Assembly (NCBI GenBank): GCA_965198105.1
Contig: OZ240240.1
Span: forward strand, 2,656,650-2,720,649
DNA from: Dehalococcoidia bacterium
GTDB lineage: Bacteria > Chloroflexota > Dehalococcoidia > Lucifugimonadales > CBDBON01
DNA length: 64,000 bases
Direction: 5' to 3'
Both the position numbers and the translations under genes were made by a program. This document shows positions 5,896 through 60,817 of this stretch, one piece after another; positions within the stretch are counted from its first letter, which is position 1; each line of letters opens with the position of its first letter. The notes under the pieces were generated by a model. It saw nothing but the letters and a program-made list of their open reading frames with translations. It was not told the DNA's origin and did not search any database.

Positions 5896-8394
5896 ATGGA
5901 TACGGTTGACAGGCAGTGGCGGGACGAAGGCGAGACACTGGCCGATTTCCTGAAGACGAAGGCCGACCTGTTCGGCGACCGCCCCGCCCTCTACTTCAAG
6001 CCCGGCTTCAGGTATCTGTCCTGGTCTTACCGGGAGCTCTGGGAGGGGGCCGGACGAGTCGCCAGCCTCCTTCAGTCCAGGGGGATCGAGAAGGGCGACC
6101 GAGTGCTGCTCTGGGGGCCCAACTGTCCGCAGTGGGTGCTCGTCTACTTCGGATGCGTGCGGGCGGGCGTGGTGCTGGTCCCGCTCGACCTGAGGAGCGC
6201 CCCGGAGTTCGTCGCCAGAGTGGCTTCGAAGACACGGCCCAAGCTGGCCTTCGTCTCCAGCGTGACGCCCCGGCGGCCGGAGGGTTTCGACGCGCCCGAG
6301 CTGCTTCTCGACCGGATCGAGCAGGAGTCGAGCGCGATGCCGGAGCCCGGCCCGGTCGATCTCGGCTGGGACGACCTCGTTGAGGTGATGTTCACGTCGG
6401 GGACCACCGGCGATCCCAAGGGCGTCATGCTGACGCACGGCAACCTCCTGTCCAACATGGTGGGAGTCACCCGGTACGTCTCCGGCAAGCCGACGGACCG
6501 GCTGCTGTCGATACTCCCCCTCAGCCATATGTTCGAGCAGATGGGCGGCCTGCTCGTCCCGCTCAAGGCCGGAGCCAACGTAACCTATCTCGCCAGCCTC
6601 AAACCGTCCGTGCTGGTGCGGACGGCCTCGGAGCGCCGCCCGACGCTCATGCTGCTGGTGCCTCAGGCCCTCGATCTGCTGATGAAATCGATAGAGCGCG
6701 AGGTGGCGCGACAGGGCAAGCAGAGACTCTGGGAGCGCTCCCACGCGGTCGCCGGACGGATGCCTAACGCGGTTCGGCGCGTCATCTTCAGGCGGGTGCT
6801 GAAGCGGCTCGGGGGAGCGCTCCAGTTCGTCTTCAGCGGCGGCGCCGCCCTGGACCCGGAGCTGGGCGCCAAGTGGGAGCGGCTGGGGATCAGGGTCATC
6901 CAGGGCTACGGCGCCACCGAGGCCAGCCCCGTCATCAGCTGTCATACGATGGAGCGTCCCGACTTCCGGTCCTCGGGGCCGCCCGTGCCCGGCGTGGAGG
7001 TGCGCGTCGCCGCGGACGGCGAGCTGCTGGTGCGCGGTCCCAACGTCGCCCAGGGCTACTGGGAGGCGCCGGAGCCTACCGCCGCCGCCTTCGACGACGG
7101 ATGGTACAAGACCGGCGACCTCGGACTCATCGACGCGCAGGGAGCCGTCCACGTCAGAGGGAGAAAAAAAGACATGATCGTCCTGCCCAACGGGCAGAAC
7201 GTCTATCCGGAGGACGTCGAGGCCGTCCTGGCCAGGCACTCCGACGTCACGGACGCGACCGTCGTCGGCCTCCCGAAGGACGGAGCGGTCCAGGTCCACG
7301 CCGTCCTGCTGATGGAGCAGCCCGGCAGGGCGGCTGACGCCGTTGCCTGGGCGAACGGACAGCTCGGCGACCACCAGCGGGTCCGGGGGCATACCGTCTG
7401 GCCCGACGACGACCTCCCGCGCACCCACACCCTGAAGGTGAAGAAGCCGGTCGTTCTGGATCGGCTGACGAGTTCGGCCGGCGTGCCGTCTGCCGGAGAG
7501 GCCCCGAAGGAGGACCCCTCGAAGGGGCGGAGCAGAGTGCAGCTTCTGATCGCCGAGGTGGCCGGCGTCTCTCCCGCCCTGATACGCCCTGACGCGTCGC
7601 TGGGGGAGACGCTGGAGATGGACTCCCTGAAGCGTGTCGAGCTGCTCTCCGCGATAGAGGAGGAGTTGGGCGTCTACGTGGACGAGACGCAGGTGGGAGC
7701 CGGGACGACCGTGCGGCAGCTCGAAGCGCTCGTAAGGGCCGACTCCCGCACGTCGCAGATCGCCTTTCCCCGCTGGGGTATGTCTCCCTGGTGCAGGCTC
7801 CTCAGGGGGCTCATACAGAGGCTGATCATCTTCCCCGCGATGGCGATGGCGTACAAGACGACCGTCACCGGCGCCGACAACGTCCAGGTGAACGGCCCGG
7901 TCATCGTAGCCGCCAACCACACCATCCACCTGGACAACGGGATCATCCTGCGCTCGATGCCGGCGTCGCTGCGCCGGAGGCTGGCCATCGCCGCCTCCGA
8001 CCACATGTGGAGCAACCCGGTGCGAAGTCTGACCATCCCGCTCCTGGGCAACGGCTTCCCCTTCTCCAGGGAGGGGAACGTCCGCAGGAGCCTGGAGAAC
8101 ATCGGACGCATCGTCGACGGCGGATGGTCGGTGCTGATCTATCCCGAGGGAGAGCTGACCGGCACAGGGCCGCTGAGGCCCTTCCTCGGAGGGACGGGGC
8201 TGATCTGCGTGGGCGGGCGCATCCCGGTCGTCCCCCTGCGGGTGAAGGTCCGCCGCACCGGCTTTCCTGCCTACTTCCCCCTGCTTCGCCGGGGGGACGT
8301 CGAGGTCTGCTTTGGCAGGCCGCTCCGCTTCGGACCGGATGTGTCGTACAGGGAGGCGACGGCCGCGATCGAAGGGGCGGTCCGAGCGCTGTAG
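5896..8394 (+). CDS. fatty acyl-AMP ligase + acyl carrier (PP-binding) + PlsC-type acyltransferase fusion
   Basis: FTSGTTGDPKG, GYGATE and TGDLG (adenylation); MDSLKRVEL (phosphopantetheine Ser); ANHTIHLD and IYPEG (acyltransferase). Confidence 0.88.
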   Translation: MDTVDRQWRDEGETLADFLKTKADLFGDRPALYFKPGFRYLSWSYRELWEGAGRVASLLQSRGIEKGDRVLLWGPNCPQWVLVYFGCVRAGVVLVPLDLRSAPEFVARVASKTRPKLAFVSSVTPRRPEGFDAPELLLDRIEQESSAMPEPGPVDLGWDDLVEVMFTSGTTGDPKGVMLTHGNLLSNMVGVTRYVSGKPTDRLLSILPLSHMFEQMGGLLVPLKAGANVTYLASLKPSVLVRTASERRPTLMLLVPQALDLLMKSIEREVARQGKQRLWERSHAVAGRMPNAVRRVIFRRVLKRLGGALQFVFSGGAALDPELGAKWERLGIRVIQGYGATEASPVISCHTMERPDFRSSGPPVPGVEVRVAADGELLVRGPNVAQGYWEAPEPTAAAFDDGWYKTGDLGLIDAQGAVHVRGRKKDMIVLPNGQNVYPEDVEAVLARHSDVTDATVVGLPKDGAVQVHAVLLMEQPGRAADAVAWANGQLGDHQRVRGHTVWPDDDLPRTHTLKVKKPVVLDRLTSSAGVPSAGEAPKEDPSKGRSRVQLLIAEVAGVSPALIRPDASLGETLEMDSLKRVELLSAIEEELGVYVDETQVGAGTTVRQLEALVRADSRTSQIAFPRWGMSPWCRLLRGLIQRLIIFPAMAMAYKTTVTGADNVQVNGPVIVAANHTIHLDNGIILRSMPASLRRRLAIAASDHMWSNPVRSLTIPLLGNGFPFSREGNVRRSLENIGRIVDGGWSVLIYPEGELTGTGPLRPFLGGTGLICVGGRIPVVPLRVKVRRTGFPAYFPLLRRGDVEVCFGRPLRFGPDVSYREATAAIEGAVRAL

Positions 8395-12056: not shown

Positions 12057-12075
12057 TAGCATCGGAACAAAAAAA

Positions 12076-12166
12076 GCCAGGGGGAGCTCGGAATGCCGGG
12101 CTGAGAGGGCAGCCGTGACGCTGTCGACCCCTTGAACCTGATCTGGGTAATGCCAGCGAAGGGAAG
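12076..12166 (+). ncRNA. TPP (thi-box) riboswitch
   Basis: GGGGAGC...GCTGAGAG...GACCC-TTGAACCTGATCTGGGTAATGCCAGCGAAGGGA matches the TPP aptamer consensus; lies upstream of thiamine genes. Confidence 0.97.
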
Positions 12167-12186
12167 AGGCATCTTCTCGAATCCTA

Positions 12187-12218
12187 AAGGCCGCCCAGAA
12201 GACCGGGCGGCCTTTTTT
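12187..12218 (+). terminator. intrinsic terminator (riboswitch expression platform)
   Basis: GGCCGCCC-loop-GGGCGGCC followed by TTTTTT, between the aptamer and thiB. Confidence 0.85.
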
Positions 12219-12326
12219 GTTGGCCCGGCAGGGCCGGGCTTATCGACGCGCCTATGCCGAATCGGAACAGTCACGATCGACGAAAAGCAAGCTCCTTCAC
12301 GAACCGAAAAAGAGGAGACGGGAAGA

Positions 12327-13454
12327 GTGACTAGACATCTGTTGCTGATCCTTGGAGCAGCGGCCGCGCTGCTGGCCGCCGCGGCGTGCGGCGACGACCC
12401 TGGTGAGACGACCGCGCCCGCCGCGTCGTCTCCTTCGCCGACAACCGCGCCGTCCCCTGCGCCGACGACCGCTCCCGCCGCGCCGCAGGAGCTGGTGGTG
12501 ATGGTGCATAGCGCCTTCGACATCGGCGAGGAGATCATCGCCGAGTTCGAGGAGGCCAACAACGCCAAGATCGTCATCCTCGAGGCCGGGAGCTCGGGCG
12601 AGGTGCTCAACCGGGCGGTGCTGGAGAAGGGCAACCCGTCCGCGGACCTCCTGTACGGCATCGACAACACCTTCTTGGGACGCGCTTTGAAGGAGGGCAT
12701 ATTCGTCCCCTACGAGTCGCCCATGCTGTCGAACGTCCCCGATCACCTGGTGCTGGACGAGAGCTTCCACGTCACCCCGGTCGACTACGGGTACGTCAAC
12801 ATCAACTACGACAAGGCGGCGCTGGCGGAGGCCGGAATGCAGCCTCCGGCTACTCTGGAGGAGCTCACGCAGCCGGAGTGGGAGGGCAGGCTCGTCGTCC
12901 AGAACCCGTCCACCTCATCGCCCGGCCTCGCCTTCCTGATAGCGACCGTCTCCTACTTCGGCGAGGACGACGACTACGACTATCTGGACTTCTGGGCCGA
13001 CCTGAAGGCGAACGGTCTGCTGGTCAAGGACAGCTGGAGCGACGCCTACTACACCGACTTCAGCAAGTACGGCGGCGACCGTCCGCTGGTAGTCTCCTAT
13101 GCCACCAGCCCCGCGGCCGAGGTCTTCTTCTCCGAGGTGGAGCTGAGCGAGCCTCCCACCGGCAACGTCCTGGTCGACAAGGCCACCTTCCTCCAGATCG
13201 AGGGCATCGGAATCCTGAAGGGAAGCGACCGCGTCGAGTTGGCCCGGAAGTTCATAGACTACGTGCTGGGCACGAGGTTCCAGGAGAACTTCCCGGACAA
13301 GATGTTCGTCTACCCCGTCAACAGCCAGGCCGTGACGCCTGACTTCTTCAGATTCGCAGAGGTGCCGACCCTGCCGTCGGACATCGGTCCGGCGGAGATC
13401 GGCGAGAAGCGCGAGGAGTGGATCGACGCCTGGACACGGGTCGTCCTGAGGTAG
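12327..13454 (+). CDS. thiB: thiamine ABC transporter substrate-binding lipoprotein
   Basis: Lipobox AAAC, P/T/A-rich linker, ADLLYGIDNT, PVDYGYVNINYD, NPSTSSPGLAF, SWSDAY and VSYATSPAAE motifs; GTG start with GAGGAG SD. Confidence 0.93.
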   Translation: MTRHLLLILGAAAALLAAAACGDDPGETTAPAASSPSPTTAPSPAPTTAPAAPQELVVMVHSAFDIGEEIIAEFEEANNAKIVILEAGSSGEVLNRAVLEKGNPSADLLYGIDNTFLGRALKEGIFVPYESPMLSNVPDHLVLDESFHVTPVDYGYVNINYDKAALAEAGMQPPATLEELTQPEWEGRLVVQNPSTSSPGLAFLIATVSYFGEDDDYDYLDFWADLKANGLLVKDSWSDAYYTDFSKYGGDRPLVVSYATSPAAEVFFSEVELSEPPTGNVLVDKATFLQIEGIGILKGSDRVELARKFIDYVLGTRFQENFPDKMFVYPVNSQAVTPDFFRFAEVPTLPSDIGPAEIGEKREEWIDAWTRVVLR

Positions 13455-13460
13455 CGCCAA

Positions 13461-13543
13461 TCCCTCCCCCTCCCCTGCGGGAGAGGGTGGCGTAAATCCC
13501 TTCCCCCGGCTCCGCGGGGGAAGGCTAGGATGGGGGTTCCCCA
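13461..13543. repeat. two REP-like palindromes (families B and A) at the thiB-thiD junction
   Basis: CCCTCCCC-tgc-GGGAGAGGG, then CCCTTCCCCC-ggctccgc-GGGGGAAGG-CTAGGATGGGGG. Confidence 0.85.
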
Positions 13544-14387
13544 CGTGAAGGTCGTCGCGACCATAGCCGGCTCCGACTCCGGCGGAGGCGCGGGCATCCA
13601 AGCCGACCTGCGCGCGATCACCGCCAACGGCGGCTTCGGAGCGTCGATAGTCACCGCCATAACCGCGCAGAACACGGTGGCCGTCACGATGTCGCAGGAG
13701 ATGGCTCCCGCGATGATCGACGCCCAGTTCGACGCCGTCTTCGGCGACATGCGCGTCGCGGCCGTCAAGACGGGGATGCTCGCCAGCGGGCGGGTGATCG
13801 AGACTGTCGCCGCCGCGCTCCGGCGGCACAGGCCCCCTTTCTTCGTCCTCGACCCCGTAATGGTGTCCAAGTCGGGCTACCGCCTGCTCGAAGAGCAGGC
13901 GGTAGCGGCGCTCCGCGAGACGCTCTTCCCGCTGGCGACGGTGATCACGCCAAACGTCCACGAGGCCGAGACCCTGACCGGACGAACGGTCCGGTCGGTC
14001 GCCGACGCCGAGAATATCGGACGAGAAATACTGAGCTATGGCCCCGGGGCGGTTCTGGTCAAGGGAGGCCACCTGATCTCCGAGCCGGCGACAGACGTGC
14101 TCGTCACCGAGGAGGGATCGACCACCCTTCCCGGCGAGTGGATCGACACGAAGCACACGCACGGAACAGGCTGCACCTACTCGGCGGCCATAGCCACTCA
14201 CCTCGCCCGCGGCCGCTCGCTCGCCCATGCGGCGCGCCTGTCCAAGGCCTACGTGACCGAGGCGATACGCGGCGGTCTTGCGATCGGAGAGGGGAGCGGC
14301 CCCACCGACCACCTATTCTACGCCCGGAGGCCGGAGCTCCACGAGTGGGCCGAGCGGCTCGGCCTCGCCCGGTCCTGGGCCGAGTAG
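13530..14387 (+). CDS. thiD: hydroxymethylpyrimidine/phosphomethylpyrimidine kinase
   Basis: IAGSDSGGGAGIQAD, VKTGML, DPVMVSKSG, VKGGH and HTHGTGCTYSAA motifs; GTG at 13545 is an alternative start. Confidence 0.95.
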   Translation: MGVPHVKVVATIAGSDSGGGAGIQADLRAITANGGFGASIVTAITAQNTVAVTMSQEMAPAMIDAQFDAVFGDMRVAAVKTGMLASGRVIETVAAALRRHRPPFFVLDPVMVSKSGYRLLEEQAVAALRETLFPLATVITPNVHEAETLTGRTVRSVADAENIGREILSYGPGAVLVKGGHLISEPATDVLVTEEGSTTLPGEWIDTKHTHGTGCTYSAAIATHLARGRSLAHAARLSKAYVTEAIRGGLAIGEGSGPTDHLFYARRPELHEWAERLGLARSWAE

Positions 14388-14489
14388 CACAGGAGGCCTC
14401 AGCCCTGAACAGCCCAGCCTCAAAGGTCCCCTCTCCCCTTTGCGGGAGAGGGTTAGGGTGAGGGGGGACAGCGTGAATCGCAAAAACTT

Positions 14490-15755
14490 ATGAACAGCCC
14501 AAGTACACCCCATCCGTCATTCCCGCGAAAGCGGGAATCCATCCCCCCGATTCCGAAGAGCGCAGAGATCGTCGTCATCGGCGCGGGCGTCATCGGCCTG
14601 TCCATCGCCTTCGAGCTGGCGCGGCGCGGCAGAGCCCCGGTCGTCCTGGAGAGGGACCGGGTAGGCGCCGGCGCCGCCTCGGCGGCGGCGGGAATGCTGG
14701 CGCCCGTCTCGGAGGCCGAGGCCGAGGAGCCGGCGCTGGTCGACCTCGCCGTCGACAGCCATCGGCGATACCCCGAGTTCGTCGCAGCCGTCGAGGAGGC
14801 GTCGGGCATCTCGTGCGGGTTCCGGAGAGAGGGCACGCTGATCGTCGCCCTGGGACGGGACCATGAGGCCGACCTCCACCACCTGCGCGAGGCCCAGCGG
14901 TCGCGCGGACTCACGGCCGTGTCGCTGACCGCGGACGAGGTGTTCGCGCTCGAGCCGCATCTGAGCGGATGGGTGACGGCCGGCCTCCTGGCCGCCGAGG
15001 ACTATCAGGTGGACCCCAGGCTGCTGCTGGCCGCGCTGAACGCCGCCGCCGGAGCGATGGGAGTCCGGGTGATCGAAGGGGTGAGGGCGACGGCCGTCGC
15101 CCCCTCGTCGAGCGGTACGAGGGTGCTGGCCGATGCCGGCGGCGTGGAGGTGGAGATCGAGTGCGACGCCGCGGTCGTCGCGGCGGGAGCCTGGATCGAC
15201 GGGCTTCTAACGCCCGCGGGAGCGTTCGGCGTCCGGCCGGTCAAGGGCCAGGTCGTGCGCCTGAGGGCGCCCCATCTCATCGATCACGTGCTCCGGACGC
15301 CCGACGTCTACGTGCTGCAGCGGGAGAGCGGCGAGCTGGTCATAGGAGCGACAGTGGAGGAGCAGGGCTTCGACGCCGCGCCGACGGCGGGAGCGGTGAT
15401 GGACCTCCTCCGCAGCGCCTGGCATCTACTGCCGGCGGTCTACGACTGCGAGCTCGCGGAGGTGAGCGTCGGCTTTCGCCCCGCCTCCCGCGACCACGCC
15501 CCCATCATCGGAGAGACGGAGACCGGGGGAGTCTTCGTCGCTACAGGGCACTACCGGCACGGCGTGCTCCTCGCGCCCGCCACCGCGCACCTCCTCTCCG
15601 ACATGATCACCGGAGGAGTCCGCTCCGATCTGCTGGCGCGGTTCGATCCCTCCCTCCGGTCCTCCTCCCTTCCCCCGGCTCCGCGGGGGAAGGCTCCCGC
15701 CTCTATCCCTTCCCCCGGCTCCGAGGGGGAAGGTCAGGATGGGGGTCCCCCATGA
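14490..15755 (+). CDS. thiO: glycine oxidase
   Basis: IGAGVIG, ASAAAAGMLAP, VKGQ, GFRP and GHYRHGVLLAP motifs; thi operon context. Confidence 0.92.
   Translation: MNSPSTPHPSFPRKRESIPPIPKSAEIVVIGAGVIGLSIAFELARRGRAPVVLERDRVGAGAASAAAGMLAPVSEAEAEEPALVDLAVDSHRRYPEFVAAVEEASGISCGFRREGTLIVALGRDHEADLHHLREAQRSRGLTAVSLTADEVFALEPHLSGWVTAGLLAAEDYQVDPRLLLAALNAAAGAMGVRVIEGVRATAVAPSSSGTRVLADAGGVEVEIECDAAVVAAGAWIDGLLTPAGAFGVRPVKGQVVRLRAPHLIDHVLRTPDVYVLQRESGELVIGATVEEQGFDAAPTAGAVMDLLRSAWHLLPAVYDCELAEVSVGFRPASRDHAPIIGETETGGVFVATGHYRHGVLLAPATAHLLSDMITGGVRSDLLARFDPSLRSSSLPPAPRGKAPASIPSPGSEGEGQDGGPP
14515..14541 (+). repeat. CGTC-tagged palindrome (ATTCCC-N8-GGGAAT) inside the thiO 5' coding region
   Basis: CGTCATTCCCGCGAAAGCGGGAATCCA; second copy at 15985-16011, reversed variant at 42771-42798. 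Confidence 0.88.
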
Positions 15756-15961
15756 GGACGATCACGGTCAACGGAGAGGCGCGCGCCGCTCCCGGCGGGG
15801 GCACCGTCGCCGCCCTTCTCACGGAGATGGGAGTGCCTCTAGACAGACGGGGGGTCGCCGTCGCCGTCAACGGGGAGATCGTCTCCAGGGAGCGGTGGGG
15901 CTCCGCGCCCCTGGACGAGGGCGACCACGTGGACCTGGTGAGGCCCGTGCAAGGAGGCTGA
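15752..15961 (+). CDS. thiS: sulfur carrier protein
   Basis: MRTITVNGE...[10 protein letters not shown]...C-terminal VQGG; ATGA overlap with the thiO stop. Confidence 0.95.
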
Positions 15962-15962
15962 G

Positions 15963-16841
15963 ATGAGCCGGAATCCTACACCTCCGTCATTCCCGCGAAG
16001 ACGGGAATCCATCCCTGCCAACCACGATGACCGGTGGGATCTGGCCGGACTGCCCCTGAGCTCCAGGCTCATCATGGGCACGGCCAGGTATCCGAGCCGT
16101 CAGGTGCTCCTCGACTCCCTGGCGGTGTCCGGCGCCGAGATGGTGACGGTGGCCCTGCGCCGCGTCGGAGTCGGCGCAGGCGATGAGAACCTGTACGAGG
16201 TGCTGTCGGGTGCGGGCTACGCGCTGCTGCCCAACACTGCCGGATGCTTCACGGCGAGGGACGCCGTGCTCACCGCGGAGCTTGCGCGGGAGGCGCTCGG
16301 CACCGATCTGATCAAGCTGGAGGTGATCGCCGACGACGCGACCCTGCTCCCGGACGGCGAGAAGCTGCTGGCCGCGGCCCGCACTCTGGTGGACAAGGGC
16401 TTCAAGGTGCTCCCCTACACCAACGACGATCCGATACTGGCGCTGAAGCTGGAGGACATCGGCTGCGCGGCCGTCATGCCCCTGGGGGCTCCCATCGGAT
16501 CGGGGCTGGGAATCCGCAACCCCCACAACATCCAGCTCATCAAGTCGCGCGCGGCCGTCCCGGTGATAGTGGACGCGGGCGTCGGCACCGCCTCCGACGT
16601 CGCGGTGGCCTTCGAGCTGGGATGCGACGCCGTGCTGCTCAACAGCGCCGTCGCCCGCGCCCAGGACCCGGTCCGCATGGCGAGGGCGGTCGGACACGCG
16701 GCGGTCTCCGGCCGGGAGGCGTTCCTGGCGGGAAGGATGCCCCGGAAGTTCTACGCGGAGCCGACCAGCCCGATGGCGGGGCGCGTCGAGGCCGCGCCCA
16801 CACGAAGAATCCCTTCCCCCGCAGAGCCGGGGGAAGGTTAG
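15963..16841 (+). CDS. thiG: thiazole synthase
   Basis: [37 protein letters not shown] and LLNSAVA motifs. Confidence 0.97.
15985..16011 (+). repeat. CGTC-tagged palindrome inside the thiG 5' coding region
   Basis: CGTCATTCCCGCGAAGACGGGAATCCA. Confidence 0.88.
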
Positions 16842-16854
16842 GATGGGGGTTCTC

Positions 16855-17475
16855 ATGAGACTGTCCGAGGATCTCTGGAGGGAGTCGTCCGATCTCGCGG
16901 ACGCCTGTCTGAACCATCCCTTCGTCAGAGGGCTGGCGGACGGGTCGCTGCCGCCGGAGCGCTACGCCCTGTTCATCGCGCAGGACGCATTCTTCCTGGA
17001 GGTGGACGCCCGCGCCTACGCGGCCGGGGTCTACCGCTCGCCGGACGCGGAGAGCCGTCGCGACTGGCACGAGCTCCAGTGCGGAGTGTTCGAGGAGCTG
17101 AAGCTGCACGGGGGCGCGGCGAAGAGGCTCGGCATCGATCTCGACCGTGTGACGCCCCTCGGGGCGACGAGGGCGTACACCGACTTCCTGCTCGCCAACA
17201 CCTTCGGCGGCACCCTGGCCGAGCTGGCCGCCTCCGTCGCCCCGTGCGTCCGCCTCTACTGTCACCTCGGCACACGCATCGTCGCGGAGGGCCACCCGCC
17301 CCACGACTACACGCAGTGGGCCGAGACCTACGCGGACCTGTCGTTCAGCGGGCTGGTCGAGCGGATCGAGAGACTGCTGGACCGCCACGCCGGCCGCACG
17401 CAGGGAGAGCGCGACAGATACCGGCAGGCGATGAGGCTGGAGCTGGAGTTCTTCGAGCAGGCCTGGACCGGCTGA
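16855..17475 (+). CDS. tenA: thiaminase II / TenA family protein
   Basis: HPFVRGL, FIAQDAFFL, YTDFL, APCVRLY, WAETY and ELEFFEQAW motifs; an upstream ATG at 16843 lies inside a repeat. Confidence 0.9.
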   Translation: MRLSEDLWRESSDLADACLNHPFVRGLADGSLPPERYALFIAQDAFFLEVDARAYAAGVYRSPDAESRRDWHELQCGVFEELKLHGGAAKRLGIDLDRVTPLGATRAYTDFLLANTFGGTLAELAASVAPCVRLYCHLGTRIVAEGHPPHDYTQWAETYADLSFSGLVERIERLLDRHAGRTQGERDRYRQAMRLELEFFEQAWTG

Positions 17476-17485
17476 GACTCTCCCC

Positions 17486-18115
17486 TTGTCCGCTACGATT
17501 CCCCGCCTGATGCTCGTAACGGACCGTGGCGCAACCGGAGGGCGCGGTCTCGTCGAGGTTGTCTCGGCCGCGGTGGAGGGGGGCGCGGACGCCGTTCAGG
17601 TGCGGGAGAAGGACCTCGCCGACGGGGAGCTCCGGGAGCTGGTGATGCGGGTCCAGCAAGCGGTGGCGGGACGGGCCCTCGTGCTGGTGAACGGCCGCCC
17701 CTCCGTCGCCGCGGAGACCGGCGCCGGTCTCCACCTCCCCGCGGACGCGCCGGCTCCCCGCCAACGGTTCCCGGTGTGGGGACGGTCGGTCCACTCCCCG
17801 GGGGAGGCGGGCCGCCGGATGGAAGAGGGGCCCGGCTACCTGCTGGTGGGCCACGTCTTCGAGACGGATTCGAAGCCCGGCCGGCCGGGGGGAGGTCTGG
17901 GACTGGTCAGGGAGACGGTGGAGGCTGCCGACAGCCTGTCCGTGCTGGCCATCGGGGGAATAGACGAGCGCAACGCGGGCGCCGTGATCGGCGCGGGCGC
18001 GGCGGGTGTCGCGGTCCGCGGAGCCGTTCTCCATGCGCGGGAGCCGGGGAAGGCGGCGAGGAGCATCCGGGAGGCCGTCGACCGCGCGCTAGGCAGGACC
18101 GAGGGTGTCCGTTGA
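17486..18115 (+). CDS. tenI: ThiE/TenI-family protein, motifs closer to thiazole tautomerase TenI
   Basis: VNGR, GRSVHS, GHVFETDSK and AIGG motifs; lacks the ThiE ND[D/R] and GP-x-F-x-T-x-TK signatures. Confidence 0.65.
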   Translation: MSATIPRLMLVTDRGATGGRGLVEVVSAAVEGGADAVQVREKDLADGELRELVMRVQQAVAGRALVLVNGRPSVAAETGAGLHLPADAPAPRQRFPVWGRSVHSPGEAGRRMEEGPGYLLVGHVFETDSKPGRPGGGLGLVRETVEAADSLSVLAIGGIDERNAGAVIGAGAAGVAVRGAVLHAREPGKAARSIREAVDRALGRTEGVR

Positions 18116-18144
18116 CGCATGACATTTCTGGACAACCCTTGCAA

Positions 18145-18448
18145 ACGCGGGAATCCCTGACCCCCATCCCCGTATCAAGTACGGGGCAGGCTCTAACCTT
18201 CCCCCGGCTCGCCGGGGGAAGGGATAAGAGGCTGTTTTTCCTCTTCCCCCGTCTACGGGGGAAGACTGAGATGGGGGACTCTTTCTCCTTCGGCGCCATA
18301 GAGGGGAGCGCCCCCTCTCCCTCAACGGGAGAGGGCTGGGATGAGAGTGCTCTCCCCTCCTCCCCCATCCGCAGAAGAAGATTTCATCCTGTCCATCCTG
18401 TCTATCCATGTCCTTTCCCCTCCCCCAGCGGGAGAGGGCCGGGATGAG
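18145..18448. repeat. mosaic cluster of several palindromic repeat families
   Basis: Partial GCGGGAATCC; CCCCGTATCAAGTACGGGG; two CTTCCCCC..GGGGGAAG units; two CCCTCTCCC..GGGAGAGGG units; ATCCTGTCCATCCTGTCTATCC. Confidence 0.85.
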
Positions 18449-20108
18449 AGAGCGCCTGACCGCCGGCCGGCTGCTGCCCCTCCTCCCCCTGGTCTACATC
18501 GGAGTCTTCCTCCTCTATCCTCTGCTGGCGATCCTGGGCCGGAGCCTCGGCGGCGACGGCCTGTTCGACCTCGCGCCGCTGCGCGCTCTGCTGAGCGACC
18601 CCTACTACCTGGGCCGGATCTGGTTCACCGTGTGGCAGGCGCTGGCCTCCACCGCTCTGACGCTCCTGGTGGGACTCCCGGCGGCCTACCTCTTCGCACG
18701 GTACGATTTCCCTGGCAAGACCCTCCTCAGGGCGCTCTCGACCGTGCCGTTCGTCATGCCGACCATCGTCGTGGCAATGGGCTTCATCGCGCTCTTCGGC
18801 CCCAGAGGGCTGGTCAATGAGCTGCTCATGGGCCTCTTCGGGCTCGACGCCCCTCCTCTGAGCATAGTCAACTCGCTGACGGCCATACTGCTGGCGCACG
18901 CCTTCTACAACTACTCGATCGTGGTGCGAGTCGTCTCCGCCTTCTGGGCGAACCTCGACCCGGCGCTGGAGGAGAGCGCGAAGGTGCTGGGAGCGGGCAG
19001 GCTGCGCACGCTCCGTCACGTCACCCTGCCGCTGCTCCTCCCCGCCATCGCCTCCTCCGCGCTGCTCGCCTTCACCTTCTCCTTCACCAGCTTCGGAGTG
19101 GTGCTGGTGCTCGGCGGATCCCAGTTCGCCACGCTGGAGGTTGCGATCTACGAGCTTACGGCGAAGCTGTTCCGGCTTCCGCTGGCCGGGGCGCTGTCGG
19201 TGGTGCAGCTGGTATTCACCTACCTGTTCCTGCTGCTCTACACGAGGCTGCAGGCGCGGAGCGTATCGAGGCTCGACCTCAAGCCTGAGAGGGCGGGTCT
19301 CTCCCGTGGCGGAAGCGGGGGGGAGCGGATCTTCATGTGGGGGATGGTCGCGGCGCTTCTGCTCATCCTGTCGCCGCTGGGGGCGCTGGCAGAGCGCGCG
19401 CTCTCCACGGGGGACGGATACTCCCTCGCGCACTTCACGGGTCTCTTCTCCAACGAGCGGGCATCCTACTTCTTCCTCTCGCCGGTGACGATCGTGTGGA
19501 ACTCGCTGCGCTTCGCGCTGGCGACGGTGGCCGTATCACTGGTCATCGGCGGCGCGGCCTCATACTTTCTGGCCGGCGCGGGGAGGCGTACGGGCGTCCT
19601 GGACGCGCTCTTCATGCTGCCGCTCGGCGTCTCGGCCGTAATCCTCGGCTACGGCTTCCTGGTCGCCTTCAACCGTCCCCCGGTGGACCTACGCGCTTCG
19701 TGGGTGCTTCTCGTCGTCGCCCACTCGCTCGTCGCCTATCCGTTCGTCATAAGGAGCATCCTGCCCGTGGTGCGCGGGATGAACCCCAACCTCAGGGAGG
19801 CGGCCGCGATGCTGGGAGCGTCGCCGGTGCGCGCCTTCGTGCACGTCGACCTGCCGATAGTGTCGCGCGCGCTGCTCGTCGGCGCGACCTTCGCCTTCGC
19901 CATCTCGATGGGAGAGTTCGGCGCCTCCCTGCTGCTCGTCAGGCCGGAGCACACGACGATGCCGGTCGCCATCTTCCGCTTCCTCTCGCAGCCGGGAGGT
20001 GAGAAACTGGGCGAGGCGCTGGCGATGAGCAGCCTGCTGATGGCGGTCGTCGCGGTGGGGTTCGTCCTGATCGAAAGGGTGCGCTACAGGGAGGTGGGCT
20101 CCTTCTGA
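18444..20108 (+). CDS. thiP: thiamine ABC transporter permease (two-domain)
   Basis: TVWQALAST, PFVMPTIVV, LAHAFYN, EESAKVLGA and REAAAMLGAS (two EAA loops); ATG 18444 preferred. Confidence 0.9.
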   Translation: MRERLTAGRLLPLLPLVYIGVFLLYPLLAILGRSLGGDGLFDLAPLRALLSDPYYLGRIWFTVWQALASTALTLLVGLPAAYLFARYDFPGKTLLRALSTVPFVMPTIVVAMGFIALFGPRGLVNELLMGLFGLDAPPLSIVNSLTAILLAHAFYNYSIVVRVVSAFWANLDPALEESAKVLGAGRLRTLRHVTLPLLLPAIASSALLAFTFSFTSFGVVLVLGGSQFATLEVAIYELTAKLFRLPLAGALSVVQLVFTYLFLLLYTRLQARSVSRLDLKPERAGLSRGGSGGERIFMWGMVAALLLILSPLGALAERALSTGDGYSLAHFTGLFSNERASYFFLSPVTIVWNSLRFALATVAVSLVIGGAASYFLAGAGRRTGVLDALFMLPLGVSAVILGYGFLVAFNRPPVDLRASWVLLVVAHSLVAYPFVIRSILPVVRGMNPNLREAAAMLGASPVRAFVHVDLPIVSRALLVGATFAFAISMGEFGASLLLVRPEHTTMPVAIFRFLSQPGGEKLGEALAMSSLLMAVVAVGFVLIERVRYREVGSF

Positions 20109-21172
20109 TGGCGATACTCCAGGTTGACGGGCTGTCCAAGTCGTTCGGCAGTGTCGCCGCCGTGCGGAGGGCGACGCTGTCGGCGGAGCGCGGGGAGCTG
20201 GTCTGCCTGCTGGGGCCGAGCGGGTGCGGCAAGTCGACCCTCCTCCGCCTGATCGCCGGGCTGGAGCGGCCGGACGAGGGGAGCGTCGTCTTCGACGGCG
20301 AGCCGATGGACGGCGTGCCTCCTCAGCGGCGCGGATTCGGGCTGATGTTCCAGGAGCTTGCGCTCTTCCCGCACATGGACGTGTTCGGCAACGTCGCCTT
20401 TGGGCTGCGGATGCGGGGAGAGCCGGGCGGCGCGGTGGAGCGGCGGGTCGCCGGGCTGTTGGAGCTGGTCGGACTGGAAGAGTACGGGAGGCGCAGGGTC
20501 CACGAGCTTTCGGGCGGCGAGCGTCAGCGGGTCGCCCTGGCCCGCGCCCTGGCGCCCGCTCCGCGGCTGCTGATGCTCGACGAGCCGCTGGGATCGCTGG
20601 ACAGGGCGCTCAGGGAGGCGCTGCAGACGCAGGTGCGCGCGGTCCTCAAAGAGGTGGGCGTCACGTCGGTCTACGTCACGCACGACCGGGACGAGGCGTT
20701 CGCGATGGGCGACCGCCTCGCCTTCATGAACGGGGGCGCGATCGTCCGCAGCGGGACGCCACAGGAGGTGTTCGACGATCCCGGGGACGAGTTCGTCGCG
20801 CGGAGCCTCGGGTTCAAGAACATCCTGACTGGGACGGTACGGCGGACGGGCGAGGTGGTGGAGGTGGAATGCGCCATCGGTCTGGTAAGGGTGCGCGGGA
20901 GCGGCGGGTCGCTGAAGGTCGGAGACGCGGTGTCACTGGTGGTGGACGAGCGGGCTGTGGAGGTCAGCGCCGGCGCGACGGCGGGACGGGGCGGCCTGCG
21001 GGGGCGGTGCGTCGAGCGCGTGTTCAGGGGCGGAGAGTACGAGCTGAGGCTGGAGGTGGGCGGCGGCGAGCTGTTCAGCCGGAGGGCGGCGGGGACGGCC
21101 CCCGCTCCGCCGGAGGAGGGGGACGAGGTGTCGGTGGTGATTCCAGAGGGCGCGGCGAAGCTGCTGCGCTAG
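20108..21172 (+). CDS. thiQ: thiamine ABC transporter ATP-binding protein
   Basis: GPSGCGKST, LSGGERQRVALARAL, LDEPLGSLD and VTHD motifs; TGATG coupling to thiP. Confidence 0.88.
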   Translation: MAILQVDGLSKSFGSVAAVRRATLSAERGELVCLLGPSGCGKSTLLRLIAGLERPDEGSVVFDGEPMDGVPPQRRGFGLMFQELALFPHMDVFGNVAFGLRMRGEPGGAVERRVAGLLELVGLEEYGRRRVHELSGGERQRVALARALAPAPRLLMLDEPLGSLDRALREALQTQVRAVLKEVGVTSVYVTHDRDEAFAMGDRLAFMNGGAIVRSGTPQEVFDDPGDEFVARSLGFKNILTGTVRRTGEVVEVECAIGLVRVRGSGGSLKVGDAVSLVVDERAVEVSAGATAGRGGLRGRCVERVFRGGEYELRLEVGGGELFSRRAAGTAPAPPEEGDEVSVVIPEGAAKLLR

Positions 21173-21720
21173 AGGGAGCCCCCATCTCAATCTTCCCCCG
21201 CGGACGGGGGAAGAGGAAGGACGCGGAAAGAGGAAGAGCGGAAGATGACGGAAGAGCGGACGAGGGGCGAGCGGCGGGAGGAGAGACGCAGGAAGCGTCG
21301 CAAGATGCGGGTCATCGGCCGGAGCGTCCGGACTCTCCAGCGAATCATCATGCGCCGCGCGGAGAAGGGGAAGGAGGACAAGGGCCGCTGAGCAGCCCCC
21401 GTCATCCTAGCTAACGGCTGACCCGGCGCTAGCCTCATCCTGTGAGCGGAGCGACGGGGCAGCTAGATCATATTACTCTTGCCCTCGGATGTACATGGCG
21501 ACAGTCAAACCGAATAGCCACGCCGATGGCGACGGATAAAGTTGGCGGGGCACCCTGTCCTGAGGATGGTTAAGGTTCAAGAATCTCAAGTCAAGATGAG
21601 CAATTCGTGAGACTCGAAGGGGATTGACGCCCCCAATTCCCCTGGTCTATGGTGAGCATACGTCTACAGGAGGTGCCACTGTATCGTTGTCAATCAAAGA
21701 GAACCATCGGAGGTGCCCAA

Positions 21721-25162: not shown

Positions 25163-25440
25163 CGGCGTCTCCTGTCAGAGCTGAGGATCGAACGGTGGCG
25201 GCTAATAACAATAGCATGAGGCTTCCCGGCCACGCCCTAGGGACCCCCATCTCAATCTTCCCCCGCGGAGCCGGGGGAAGAGGTAAGAGCCTCCTCTCCA
25301 TCCGCCAAATTGCCCACATTACTCATGGAGTCCGAACAGTTATCGCTTTAGGTCTTCCGGTTGATGGGCGGGCGGCGGCGTGCGAGAATACCGGCCACAG
25401 TCTTACGGTCCGGCGGATCAGCCGAAAGAGGGGGTCTACG

Positions 25441-38499: not shown

Positions 38500-38623
38500 G
38501 TAACTGTTCAGACTTGCGGCGGGACCCCCATCTCAATCTTCCCCCGCAGAGCCGGGGAAGAGGTAAGAACCTCCTCTCCACCCCGCCAATTGCCCGCATT
38601 ACACATGGAGTCTGGGCAGTTAC
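38500..38623. mobile_element. MITE copy 1 (124 bp)
   Basis: Ends GTAACTGTTCAGA / TCTGGGCAGTTAC; flanks GCTCCGTC / GTTCCGTC (7/8 TSD match). Confidence 0.85.
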
Positions 38624-38716
38624 GTTCCGTCAACCGGAAGGTTGGAGAAGGCGGCATCGTGATAGAATCCTCAGTCTCGCGAGGGTCGAAGGGCCGTACG
38701 GGGACCAGGAGAAGGA

Positions 38717-38841
38717 GTAGATGTTCAGACTTGAGGGGAGCCCCCATCTCAATCTTCCCCCGCGGAGCCGGGGGAAGAGGTAAGAGGCTTCTCTCCGTCC
38801 ACCAGATTCGTCAGAGTGTCTCACGGAGTCTGAACAGTTAC
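38717..38841. mobile_element. MITE copy 2 (125 bp)
   Basis: Ends GTAGATGTTCAGA / TCTGAACAGTTAC; perfect 8-bp TSD GAGAAGGA (38709-38716, 38842-38849). Confidence 0.88.
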
Positions 38842-60693: not shown

Positions 60694-60817
60694 GTAACTG
60701 TTCAGAGTTGAGAGGGGCCCCCCCATCTCAATCTTCCCCCGCGGACGGGGGAAGAGGAAAGAACCTTCTCTCCGTCCCGCCAACTACCCGCATCTCTCAC
60801 GTAGTCTGAACAGTTAC
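60694..60817. mobile_element. MITE copy 3 (124 bp)
   Basis: Perfect 13-bp TIRs GTAACTGTTCAGA / TCTGAACAGTTAC; perfect 8-bp TSD GTGCTGCC (60686-60693, 60818-60825). Confidence 0.92.

Follow-up and report, generated by a model that had tools for sequence, protein, structure and literature searches.

The window considered here is a 64,000-nt stretch of Dehalococcoidia bacterium DNA (C1:2656650-2720649 of a single-contig genome of 3.645 Mb and 63.6% G+C), and it carries a co-directional run of thiamine (thi) genes, thiB-like, thiD, thiO, thiS, thiG, tenA, tenI/thiE, thiP and thiQ, headed by a thiamine pyrophosphate (TPP) riboswitch, whose junctions are crowded with palindromic repeats. These repeats probably belong to a genome-wide family of intrastrand-triplex type that has recently accumulated at the thi operon as a hot spot, and the parts they play at gene ends, start codons and Shine-Dalgarno (SD) regions would be incidental by-products. 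Judged by its sequence architecture, the family is a large and diverse new member of the PIT/TMECO/BoxC kind of repeat. It is multi-copy, evolutionarily unstable or mobile, and without a dedicated transposase.

Eleven polypyrimidine/polypurine hairpins occupy six of the nine thi junctions, with 9-bp stems at the positions given in the table and two degenerate copies at 13466-13487 and 18418-18438. The original prediction had placed repeats at these junctions, and all of its positions hold one; missing from its listing were the thiS ATG at 15752, which lies 6 nt behind a tail, and the reverse orientation of the copies at 18197 and 21191. In the window the hairpin core CTTCCCCC-N4-8-GGGGGAAG has 11 occurrences, where 100 shuffles gave an expectation of 0.00. 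The proposed comparison of density with the rest of the genome also came out in favour of an enrichment: an element is present at 8.7% of 3020 junctions genome-wide, as defined by an in-house simple gene caller (3021 genes) that underlies all junction statistics given here, and 10 confident copies fall within the 7.8 kb of the thi region, compared with a genome mean of 0.86 per 7.8-kb window. Windows of nine junctions with at least six occupied number 14 of 3012 and come from three regions, near 2.616 Mb, at the thi operon and at 3.24-3.26 Mb, which places the thi run among the three densest. Part of this enrichment is regional, as the 100-kb bin around the window is rich in repeats as a whole. 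An assembly artefact is excluded by short-read contigs from the probable source sample, independent of the assembly, which show 0 differences at the thi junctions. Single spacers elsewhere can be denser than thi, with tandem arrays resembling bacterial interspersed mosaic elements (BIMEs) at genome positions 2105930-2107120, 2997978-2998911 and 3249998-3254694, that alternate between two or three element types at periods of ~150-160 bp.

Each unit consists of a 9-nt pyrimidine (Y) arm, a loop of 4-8 nt, the complementary 9-nt purine (R) arm, a 3-nt linker and a 9-nt purine-rich tail. What had been described as a conserved tail is the purine arm mirrored, that is, read backwards, with T opposite A at position 4. 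A 9/9 mirror tail follows the 3-nt linker in 282 of 312 perfect 9-bp hairpins, and the pattern Y9-N3-8-R9-N3-R9 has 288 matches in the genome. Tails were detected by a mirror-score test, which replaced a regular-expression test that missed many tails and left 151 hairpins unoriented. Sorting this genome's copies by stem gave the five types listed in the table (A-E); arm types A-F vary at mirror positions 1, 3 and 6, and the tail follows in every type. The main type in a same-genus genome (G001, hereafter the congener), which carries the same operon at ~92% nucleotide identity, combines a 10-bp stem, GGGGGGAAGA, with a tail of 10 nt, AGATGGGGGG, and its linker differs; one extra G.C pair in the stem is accompanied by one extra G in the tail. 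In 28 other genomes, at their best-hit loci, the mirror tail is perfect for 41 of 43 hairpins, 10-11-nt versions included, and new arm types occur there with tails to match (GGGGGAGGA/AGGTGGGGG and GGGGGAGAG/GAGAGGGGG); of 790 cross-type arm/tail pairings, none would be perfect. Elements cease to resemble one another 2-5 nt beyond the unit.

An intramolecular purine-motif triple helix needs a mirror-symmetric, antiparallel third strand (G*G.C, A*A.T, T*A.T). Because the tail follows the purine arm through a 3-nt turn and is both antiparallel and mirror-symmetric to it, a single-strand hairpin of this family could take up its tail as a third strand with the same three triplets. That all three strands change together across genomes argues for selection on the three-stranded fold itself, and lends indirect support to a purine-motif fold of these sequences. 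Hairpin loops are seen in both orientations relative to the tail (GGCTCCGC versus GCAGAGCC/GCGGAGCC, e.g., 13508-13515 versus 16821-16828), as would be expected if the loop flips by recombination between perfect arms; this mixture makes a directional reading of the loop sequence unlikely.

The PIT motif is reportedly due to Hoyne et al. 2000. Holder et al. 2015 (PMC4666352) describe it as the TMECO motif, which overlaps the E. coli BoxC repeat, is laid out as CCCTCNCCC N3-6 GGGNGAGGG N3 GGGNGAGGG and occurs 3610 times in 262 proteobacterial genomes. Its second loop reads TTA or CCG, the two types often stand as inverted pairs, and the E. coli sequence forms a stable triplex in vitro as single-stranded DNA (ssDNA), as seen by circular dichroism and nuclear magnetic resonance (PMC4666352). 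The motif showed no promoter or terminator activity and has been tied to local genomic variability (PMC4666352). The exact published pattern has 14 matches in our genome, including the type C copy at 14429-14464 of the window, while the remaining types (A, B, D, E and F) have its architecture without its exact consensus. Of 5426 complete E. coli genomes, 5364 contain matches to a 48-nt type C copy, with identities of up to 91-95% and a median of 8 places per genome, and the E. coli hrpB-mrcB spacer reads CCCTCTCCC TTGA GGGAGAGGG TTA GGGTGAGGG beside an inverted partner.

The likeness to PIT/TMECO/BoxC thus extends over the whole unit, namely a 9-nt C-rich stem, a loop, a 9-nt G-rich stem, a 3-nt second loop that is often TTA and a 9-nt G-rich third strand, and it includes the multi-copy and mostly intergenic distribution, the inverted partners of a second type, the lack of a linked transposase and the variation of loci between close relatives. 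The differences lie in host, number and diversity. While the known motif belongs to Proteobacteria, the present host is a sponge-associated lineage of Chloroflexota, as ThiG relatives and public sequencing runs point to Chloroflexota of sponge, coral and marine metagenomes. The copy number of ~335-400 per genome compares with a published TMECO maximum of 143, the stem types that covary in all three strands number six or more, and loops reach 8 nt as opposed to the published 3-6 nt. Between co-directional genes there is a 2.5:1 sense bias that is not seen in E. coli (PMC4666352); copies extend into coding ends, and one type is carried by an IS66-type MITE (a miniature transposable element with inverted repeats).

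Much of the thi arrangement differs in the congener, as shown by alignment of the junctions. Its operon, otherwise collinear, is without the copies between thiD and thiO, both copies in the 3' end of thiO, three of the five between tenI and thiP, and the copy after thiQ. The ~71-nt insertion between thiD and thiO, which is absent there, is bounded in our genome by an 11-nt direct repeat, TGAACAGCCCA, and in a further relative, from a sponge metagenome, 12 nt stand where our genome has 14405-14550. The two elements at the 3' end of thiO make up a 72-nt in-frame difference. Between thiB and thiD both genomes have an element, the linker of which is expanded in the congener by a mini-hairpin (long-linker variant), and at thiG/tenA the congener copy is degenerate, its tail position reading AGGAGGTGGAG, a canonical SD. 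Of the five elements between tenI and thiP, the congener has two, one reverse and one forward. Elsewhere, in 400 kb of syntenic sequence, a solo unit of 47-48 nt is cleanly present or absent at several loci, with no target-site duplication at the clean empty sites, or at most 2-3 nt of microhomology. Because of this presence and absence, in the operon as in syntenic sequence, copies have been gained or lost since the two lineages split and the thi arrangement is not conserved; on alignment grounds, the thi copies would be recent insertions. The expanded linker, in which 3 nt have grown to ~27 nt through a CCCCGTAC-loop-GTACGGGG hairpin with the mirror tail kept, occurs at 18160-18196 of the window, at congener locus L093 (~6916-6982) and in ~13 similar copies genome-wide.

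Gene boundaries in the operon have been redrawn where the elements stand. The stop codon of ThiG, TAG at 16839-16841, is made of the element's linker and the first base of its tail, as had been noticed from the sequence before; in the congener the stop is a TGA that overlaps the tenA ATG, whereas here the TAG ends ThiG 14 nt earlier. Translation of the repeat at the C terminus of ThiO was likewise borne out, the last 24 residues being encoded by two elements, while the congener protein ends ...FDPSVPPSEGTGS*. At the other end of thiO, the right edge of the insertion converts a CTG codon of the congener into ATG 14490, which is the only canonical in-frame start and now lies far from the old AAGGAGAGG. 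The three start codons that the original prediction had assigned to tails fared differently. ATG 18444 of thiP stands, since it is the only start candidate common to both genomes. The start of thiD is most likely GTG 13545, 8 nt behind the tail of its element, because this GTG is conserved in the congener and the tail ATG at 13530 is out of frame there; and 16843 is not the start of tenA because ATG 16855 is conserved, with no ATG in the congener at the position of 16843. The thiS start, ATG 15752, is the same in both genomes. Purine-rich tails therefore end 5-8 nt upstream of three starts, those of thiD, thiS and tenA.

Beyond the operon, the genome holds 372 perfect hairpins with a pyrimidine 5' arm of at least 8 bp, or 564 when one mismatch is allowed, 406 of them confident, and the family as a whole is put at ~335-400 copies in all junction types. 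A covariance model, R1, built from alignment A2 with a few 5-nt loops padded to 6 nt for column register and used as a search tool only, detected members in 39 of 61 genomes from the order, every one of a separate family-level group. The orientation of copies is uneven. Over co-directional junctions, with sense meaning that the purine-rich strand is the coding strand, sense and antisense copies stand at 95:37, and at 74:30 where both flanking genes have at least 200 aa (p = 1.9e-5); type D favours the opposite orientation. No usable GC-skew pattern was found in the genome on which a replication-strand explanation could be built, and the bias suggests a link with transcription. Possible causes of the bias are selection against template strands prone to triplex formation, avoidance of C-rich transcripts, or tolerance due to the stop, SD-like and RTG signals that the sense strand presents.

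General roles for the tail in translation did not emerge from the genome-wide comparison. Among 87 near-upstream cases, 27 have a tail ATG or GTG that shares the reading frame of the gene behind it, about one third and close to the chance rate, and we rejected such a codon as a general start. The tail was also rejected as a general SD: there is no genome-wide excess of starts 4-10 nt behind a tail, the spacing of an SD, and predicted RNA folds pair its G-run with nearby C-runs. Many genes downstream of elements keep their own AGGAGG, and the 3' end of the 16S rRNA, with its anti-SD, is canonical. Eight predicted genes end at a linker stop in the sense orientation and five end in an element on the other strand. 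Such gene ends resemble the incidental donation of stops known for repetitive extragenic palindromic (REP) sequences (PMC3733652). Assembled contigs of sponge metatranscriptomes show that the operon is transcribed at a low level. These contigs give low coverage of thi, and repeat positions collect reads from all copies, so that coverage steps cannot be read; an RNA-level role of the elements is possible but unsupported.

We propose the following account of how the operon came by its repeats. Copies would land in short intercistronic spaces or at gene ends, where reading frames then re-terminate or re-initiate inside them, as the ThiG stop in the linker, the 24-aa extension of ThiO and the thiP ATG in the tail may exemplify. 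Sense copies may be tolerated within operons because of the likeness of the purine arm and tail to an SD tract and because stop-N-RTG is a frequent reading of linker plus tail. Acting as start, stop or SD would then be a by-product and not the reason for the element, the selected feature being a triplex-capable fold of ssDNA, and the orientation bias may reflect selection against that strand as template.

A possible if doubtful variant is that the elements are self-propagating DNA, whose ssDNA triplex fold is the substrate of a copying or insertion activity other than RAYT; sense copies would in this case be a portable intercistronic cassette (linker stop, SD-like arm, tail RTG) that colonises operons and rewires their starts. 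If true, selection on the fold would be visible as three-strand covariation across many bacterial families.

Classical REPs stabilise mRNA. By analogy with this role, the thi hairpins could be a design particular to the operon, acting as barriers to 3' exonucleases or as processing sites that set the stabilities of thi mRNA segments, with tails that couple the translation of successive cistrons. The sense orientation of seven of the nine tailed thi copies would fit, as would the tails placed shortly before three starts, the thiP ATG kept within a tail in both congeners, the genome-wide sense bias and a metatranscriptome contig that runs across the thiG/tenA element (16790-16994). We nevertheless regard such a design as unlikely. 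Most thi copies are missing from the congener's operon, and divergent (10.7%) and convergent (11.1%) junctions are occupied at least as often as co-directional ones (7.7%). There is no SD-spacing peak across the genome, many downstream genes have an AGGAGG of their own, in the predicted folds the tail's G-run is paired and not exposed, and the E. coli motif is without promoter or terminator activity (PMC4666352). The arrangement can thus no longer be taken as a feature of the thi operon, as first proposed, given the hundreds of copies genome-wide and the absence of most thi copies from the congener.

It is very improbable that the solo hairpins are decayed remnants of the IS66-type MITE, even though a type A unit does lie within this 124-150-bp element with its GTAACTGTTCAGACT inverted ends and 8-bp duplication: both MITE ends are near only 18 of 344 oriented copies, types C-E were never seen inside the MITE and type B only once in 58 copies, 38 other genomes of the order, and E. 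coli as well, carry the family, and similarity ends 2-5 nt outside the unit with no MITE-internal flanks kept. Solo units, moreover, have neither terminal inverted repeats nor a clear target duplication, features by which a MITE is recognised, and the thiD/thiO insert has a flanking direct repeat of 11 nt; 8-bp duplications are seen only with the IS66-type MITE. Type A units inside this MITE are found in the window at 25244-25281, 38537-38778 and 60720-60755, and at several of these loci the congener has empty sites with 8-bp target duplications.

Least credible of all is a classical REP or REPIN mobilised by a RAYT (Y1) transposase, which would account for short GC-rich palindromes in hundreds of copies, partly in inverted pairs and BIME-like arrays and with no clear target duplication, since a search of the 97%-complete genome with PF01797 (RAYT/Y1) gave no match at E <= 0.01 while control genomes were detected, and since no conserved GTAG or CGTC tetranucleotide was found next to the stem, the flank there being yTr and the 9-nt mirror of the purine arm.

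Several points weigh against the preferred account of a triplex-type family with incidental roles in the operon. The TMECO motif formed no triplex in duplex DNA, and none was detected by dimethyl sulphate footprinting in vivo (PMC4666352). The structure experiment exists for the E. coli motif only, and ViennaRNA cannot model triplexes. That one operon has three tails at SD distance, and that sense orientation is favoured 2.5:1, may be signs of real selection for a function at the RNA level. Simple in-house gene calls underlie the genome-wide statistics. The direction of change, insertion as opposed to deletion, is read from the 11-nt direct repeat at thiD/thiO and from parsimony at the other junctions, and the 3' end of thiO in the congener retains a short, remnant-like CCCTTCC/GAAGGG palindrome, so a loss in the congener could have occurred there.

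Resemblances to other repeats are partial. Rickettsia palindromic elements (RPEs) are longer than the present repeats and lie mostly inside genes. As with RPEs and intragenic CGTC REPs, palindromes are tolerated in frame in coding genes (the 24 residues added to ThiO); unlike RPEs, most copies here are intergenic and overlap coding sequence only at gene ends. The mycobacterial interspersed repetitive units (MIRUs) of Supply et al. 1997 are said to be 40-100-bp direct tandem units, neither palindromic nor endowed with a triplex motif; the likeness is that of intercistronic operon repeats in one orientation whose stop and start codons overlap those of flanking genes. With REP/BIME and REPIN sequences the family shares short GC-rich extragenic palindromes in hundreds of copies, in pairs and mosaic tandem arrays, and REP ends are also known to donate TAG stops to adjacent open reading frames and to occur inside their termini (PMC3733652). 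Unlike them, it has no GTAG or CGTC tag and no RAYT gene, and its conserved flank is the mirror of the stem.

Features of the thi operon and its repeats in the window (window coordinates), followed by the element types of this genome
Feature	Position	Strand	9-bp stem	Details
TPP riboswitch aptamer, operon head	12070..12181	+		Rfam RF00059, 66.9 bits vs gathering score 54.3
Terminator-like GC hairpin and T-run after aptamer	~12187-12222	+		read from sequence
thiB-like, thiamine ABC substrate-binding protein	12327..13454	+		TIGR01254, 275.8 bits
Degenerate tail-less hairpin, thiB/thiD spacer	13466..13487	+		CCCCCTCCCC..GGGAGAGGG; not in this form in congener
Type B element	13499..13536	+	13499-13524	Y arm 13499-13507, R arm 13516-13524, linker CTA, mirror tail GGATGGGGG 13528-13536
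thiD (hydroxymethylpyrimidine (HMP)/HMP-P kinase)	13545..14387	+		TIGR00097, 318 bits
~71-nt insertion with type C element	14419..14489	+	14429-14452	linker TTA, tail GGGTGAGGG 14456-14464
thiO (glycine oxidase)	14490..15755	+		TIGR02352 covers residues 27-375 of 421
CGTC-type REP, translated in ThiO N terminus	14513..14541	+		CCGTCATTCCCGCGAAAGCGGGAATCCA; diverged in congener
Tail-less type B hairpin in thiO 3' end	15668..15693	+	15668-15693	absent in congener
Type B element in thiO 3' end	15708..15745	+	15708-15733	linker TCA, tail GGATGGGGG 15737-15745, ends 6 nt before thiS ATG 15752
thiS	15752..15961	+		TIGR01683, 69 bits, profile 1-64 at residues 4-69
thiG	15963..16841	+		relatives match residues ~22-276 of 292
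CGTC-type REP, translated in ThiG N terminus	15983..16011	+		42-nt in-frame difference, absent in congener
Type B element, thiG/tenA	16812..16849	+	16812-16837	linker TTA, tail GGATGGGGG 16841-16849, ends 5 nt before tenA ATG
tenA (thiaminase II)	16855..17475	+		start ATG 16855; TIGR04306 and PRK14713 matches
tenI/thiE-like	17486..18115	+		start uncertain (17486 or 17510)
Type B element, expanded linker	18160..18222	-	18197-18222	inner mini-hairpin CCCCGTAC..GTACGGGG in linker; short form in congener
Type A element	18242..18277	+	18242-18265	TCTTCCCCC..GGGGGAAGA, linker CTG, tail AGATGGGGG; absent in congener
Type C-like element	18313..18347	+	18313-18335	imperfect tail GGATGAGAG (7/9); absent in congener
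Degenerate element	18418..18450	+		R arm GGGAGAGGG 18430-18438, linker CCG, tail GGATGAGAG 18442-18450, holds thiP ATG 18444; present in congener
thiP-like, fused ABC permease	18444..20108	+		start shared with congener
thiQ-like, ABC ATPase	20108..21172	+		
Type A element after thiQ	21179..21214	-	21191-21214	within ~57-nt insertion absent in congener
Type A				purine arm GGGGGAAGA, linker TTG, tail AGATGGGGG
Type B				purine arm GGGGGAAGG, linker yTA, tail GGATGGGGG
Type C				purine arm GGGAGAGGG, linker CTA, tail GGGTGAGGG
Type D				purine arm GGGAGAGGA, linker yTG, tail AGGTGAGGG
Type E				purine arm GGGAGAAGG, linker TTr, tail GGATGAGGG

A separate family of CGTC-type REPs is also translated within the operon. 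Its copies, reading CCGTC ATTCCCGCG AAAG CGCGGGAAT CCA-like, are mostly intergenic and comprise ~50 good ones among 78 fuzzy matches; they have the features by which CGTC REPs are defined, namely the CGTC tag itself, a stem of 8-9 bp with AT at its start, a loop of 4-5 nt and a tail resembling CCA (PMC3733652), and the ATTCCCGCG family does carry the CGTC. The repeat, CCGTCATTCCCGCGAARRCGGGAATCCA, is in frame in the N termini of ThiO, as PSFPRKRESIP, and of ThiG, and a half copy lies near 18141-18160.

The proteins and leader of the operon show further peculiarities. The thiB-like gene has a GTG start, kept in the congener, and encodes a lipoprotein-like N terminus; the leader between the riboswitch terminator and this start (12232-12313) is ~66 nt longer than that of the congener, with the extra sequence outside both repeat families. 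ThiO extends beyond its family profile by 26 aa at the N terminus and ~46 aa at the C terminus, and in ThiG the N-terminal 21 aa and the last ~15 aa are unconserved. ThiG is 70-80% identical to proteins of other Chloroflexota/Dehalococcoidia and of metagenome-assembled genomes labelled 'Rokubacteria', and only 45-51% identical to those of genomes of the same order, a pattern that may point to horizontal acquisition of the thi genes or to a taxonomy that is uneven. Directly after thiQ, an open reading frame at 21246-21392 (+) encodes 48 aa rich in Arg and Lys (MTEERTRGERREERRRKRRKMRVIG...) and keeps its frame in the congener at ~90% nucleotide identity; it looks like a real small gene, to judge from this comparison. 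Elsewhere in the genome, two full genes for DUF559 (Vsr-like endonuclease, PF04480), at 3012786-3013181 and 3250942-3251295 and paralogous at 58% identity, are each tightly bracketed by inverted triplex-motif elements, with a type E tail adjoining or including the start codon of one. We claim no link between DUF559 and the elements, as the two full copies are the only ones and both stand in repeat-dense regions.

For annotation, several gene boundaries of this operon are defined by repeats and are easily miscalled. The repeats can remodel gene ends, SD regions and start codons even in an operon for an essential cofactor. PIT/TMECO/BoxC sequences have been known for 25 years, and the triplex is not known to matter in vivo. 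The present lineage offers a natural covariation data set on this very point, with at least six stem types, in which three strands change together, in dozens of genomes from different families.

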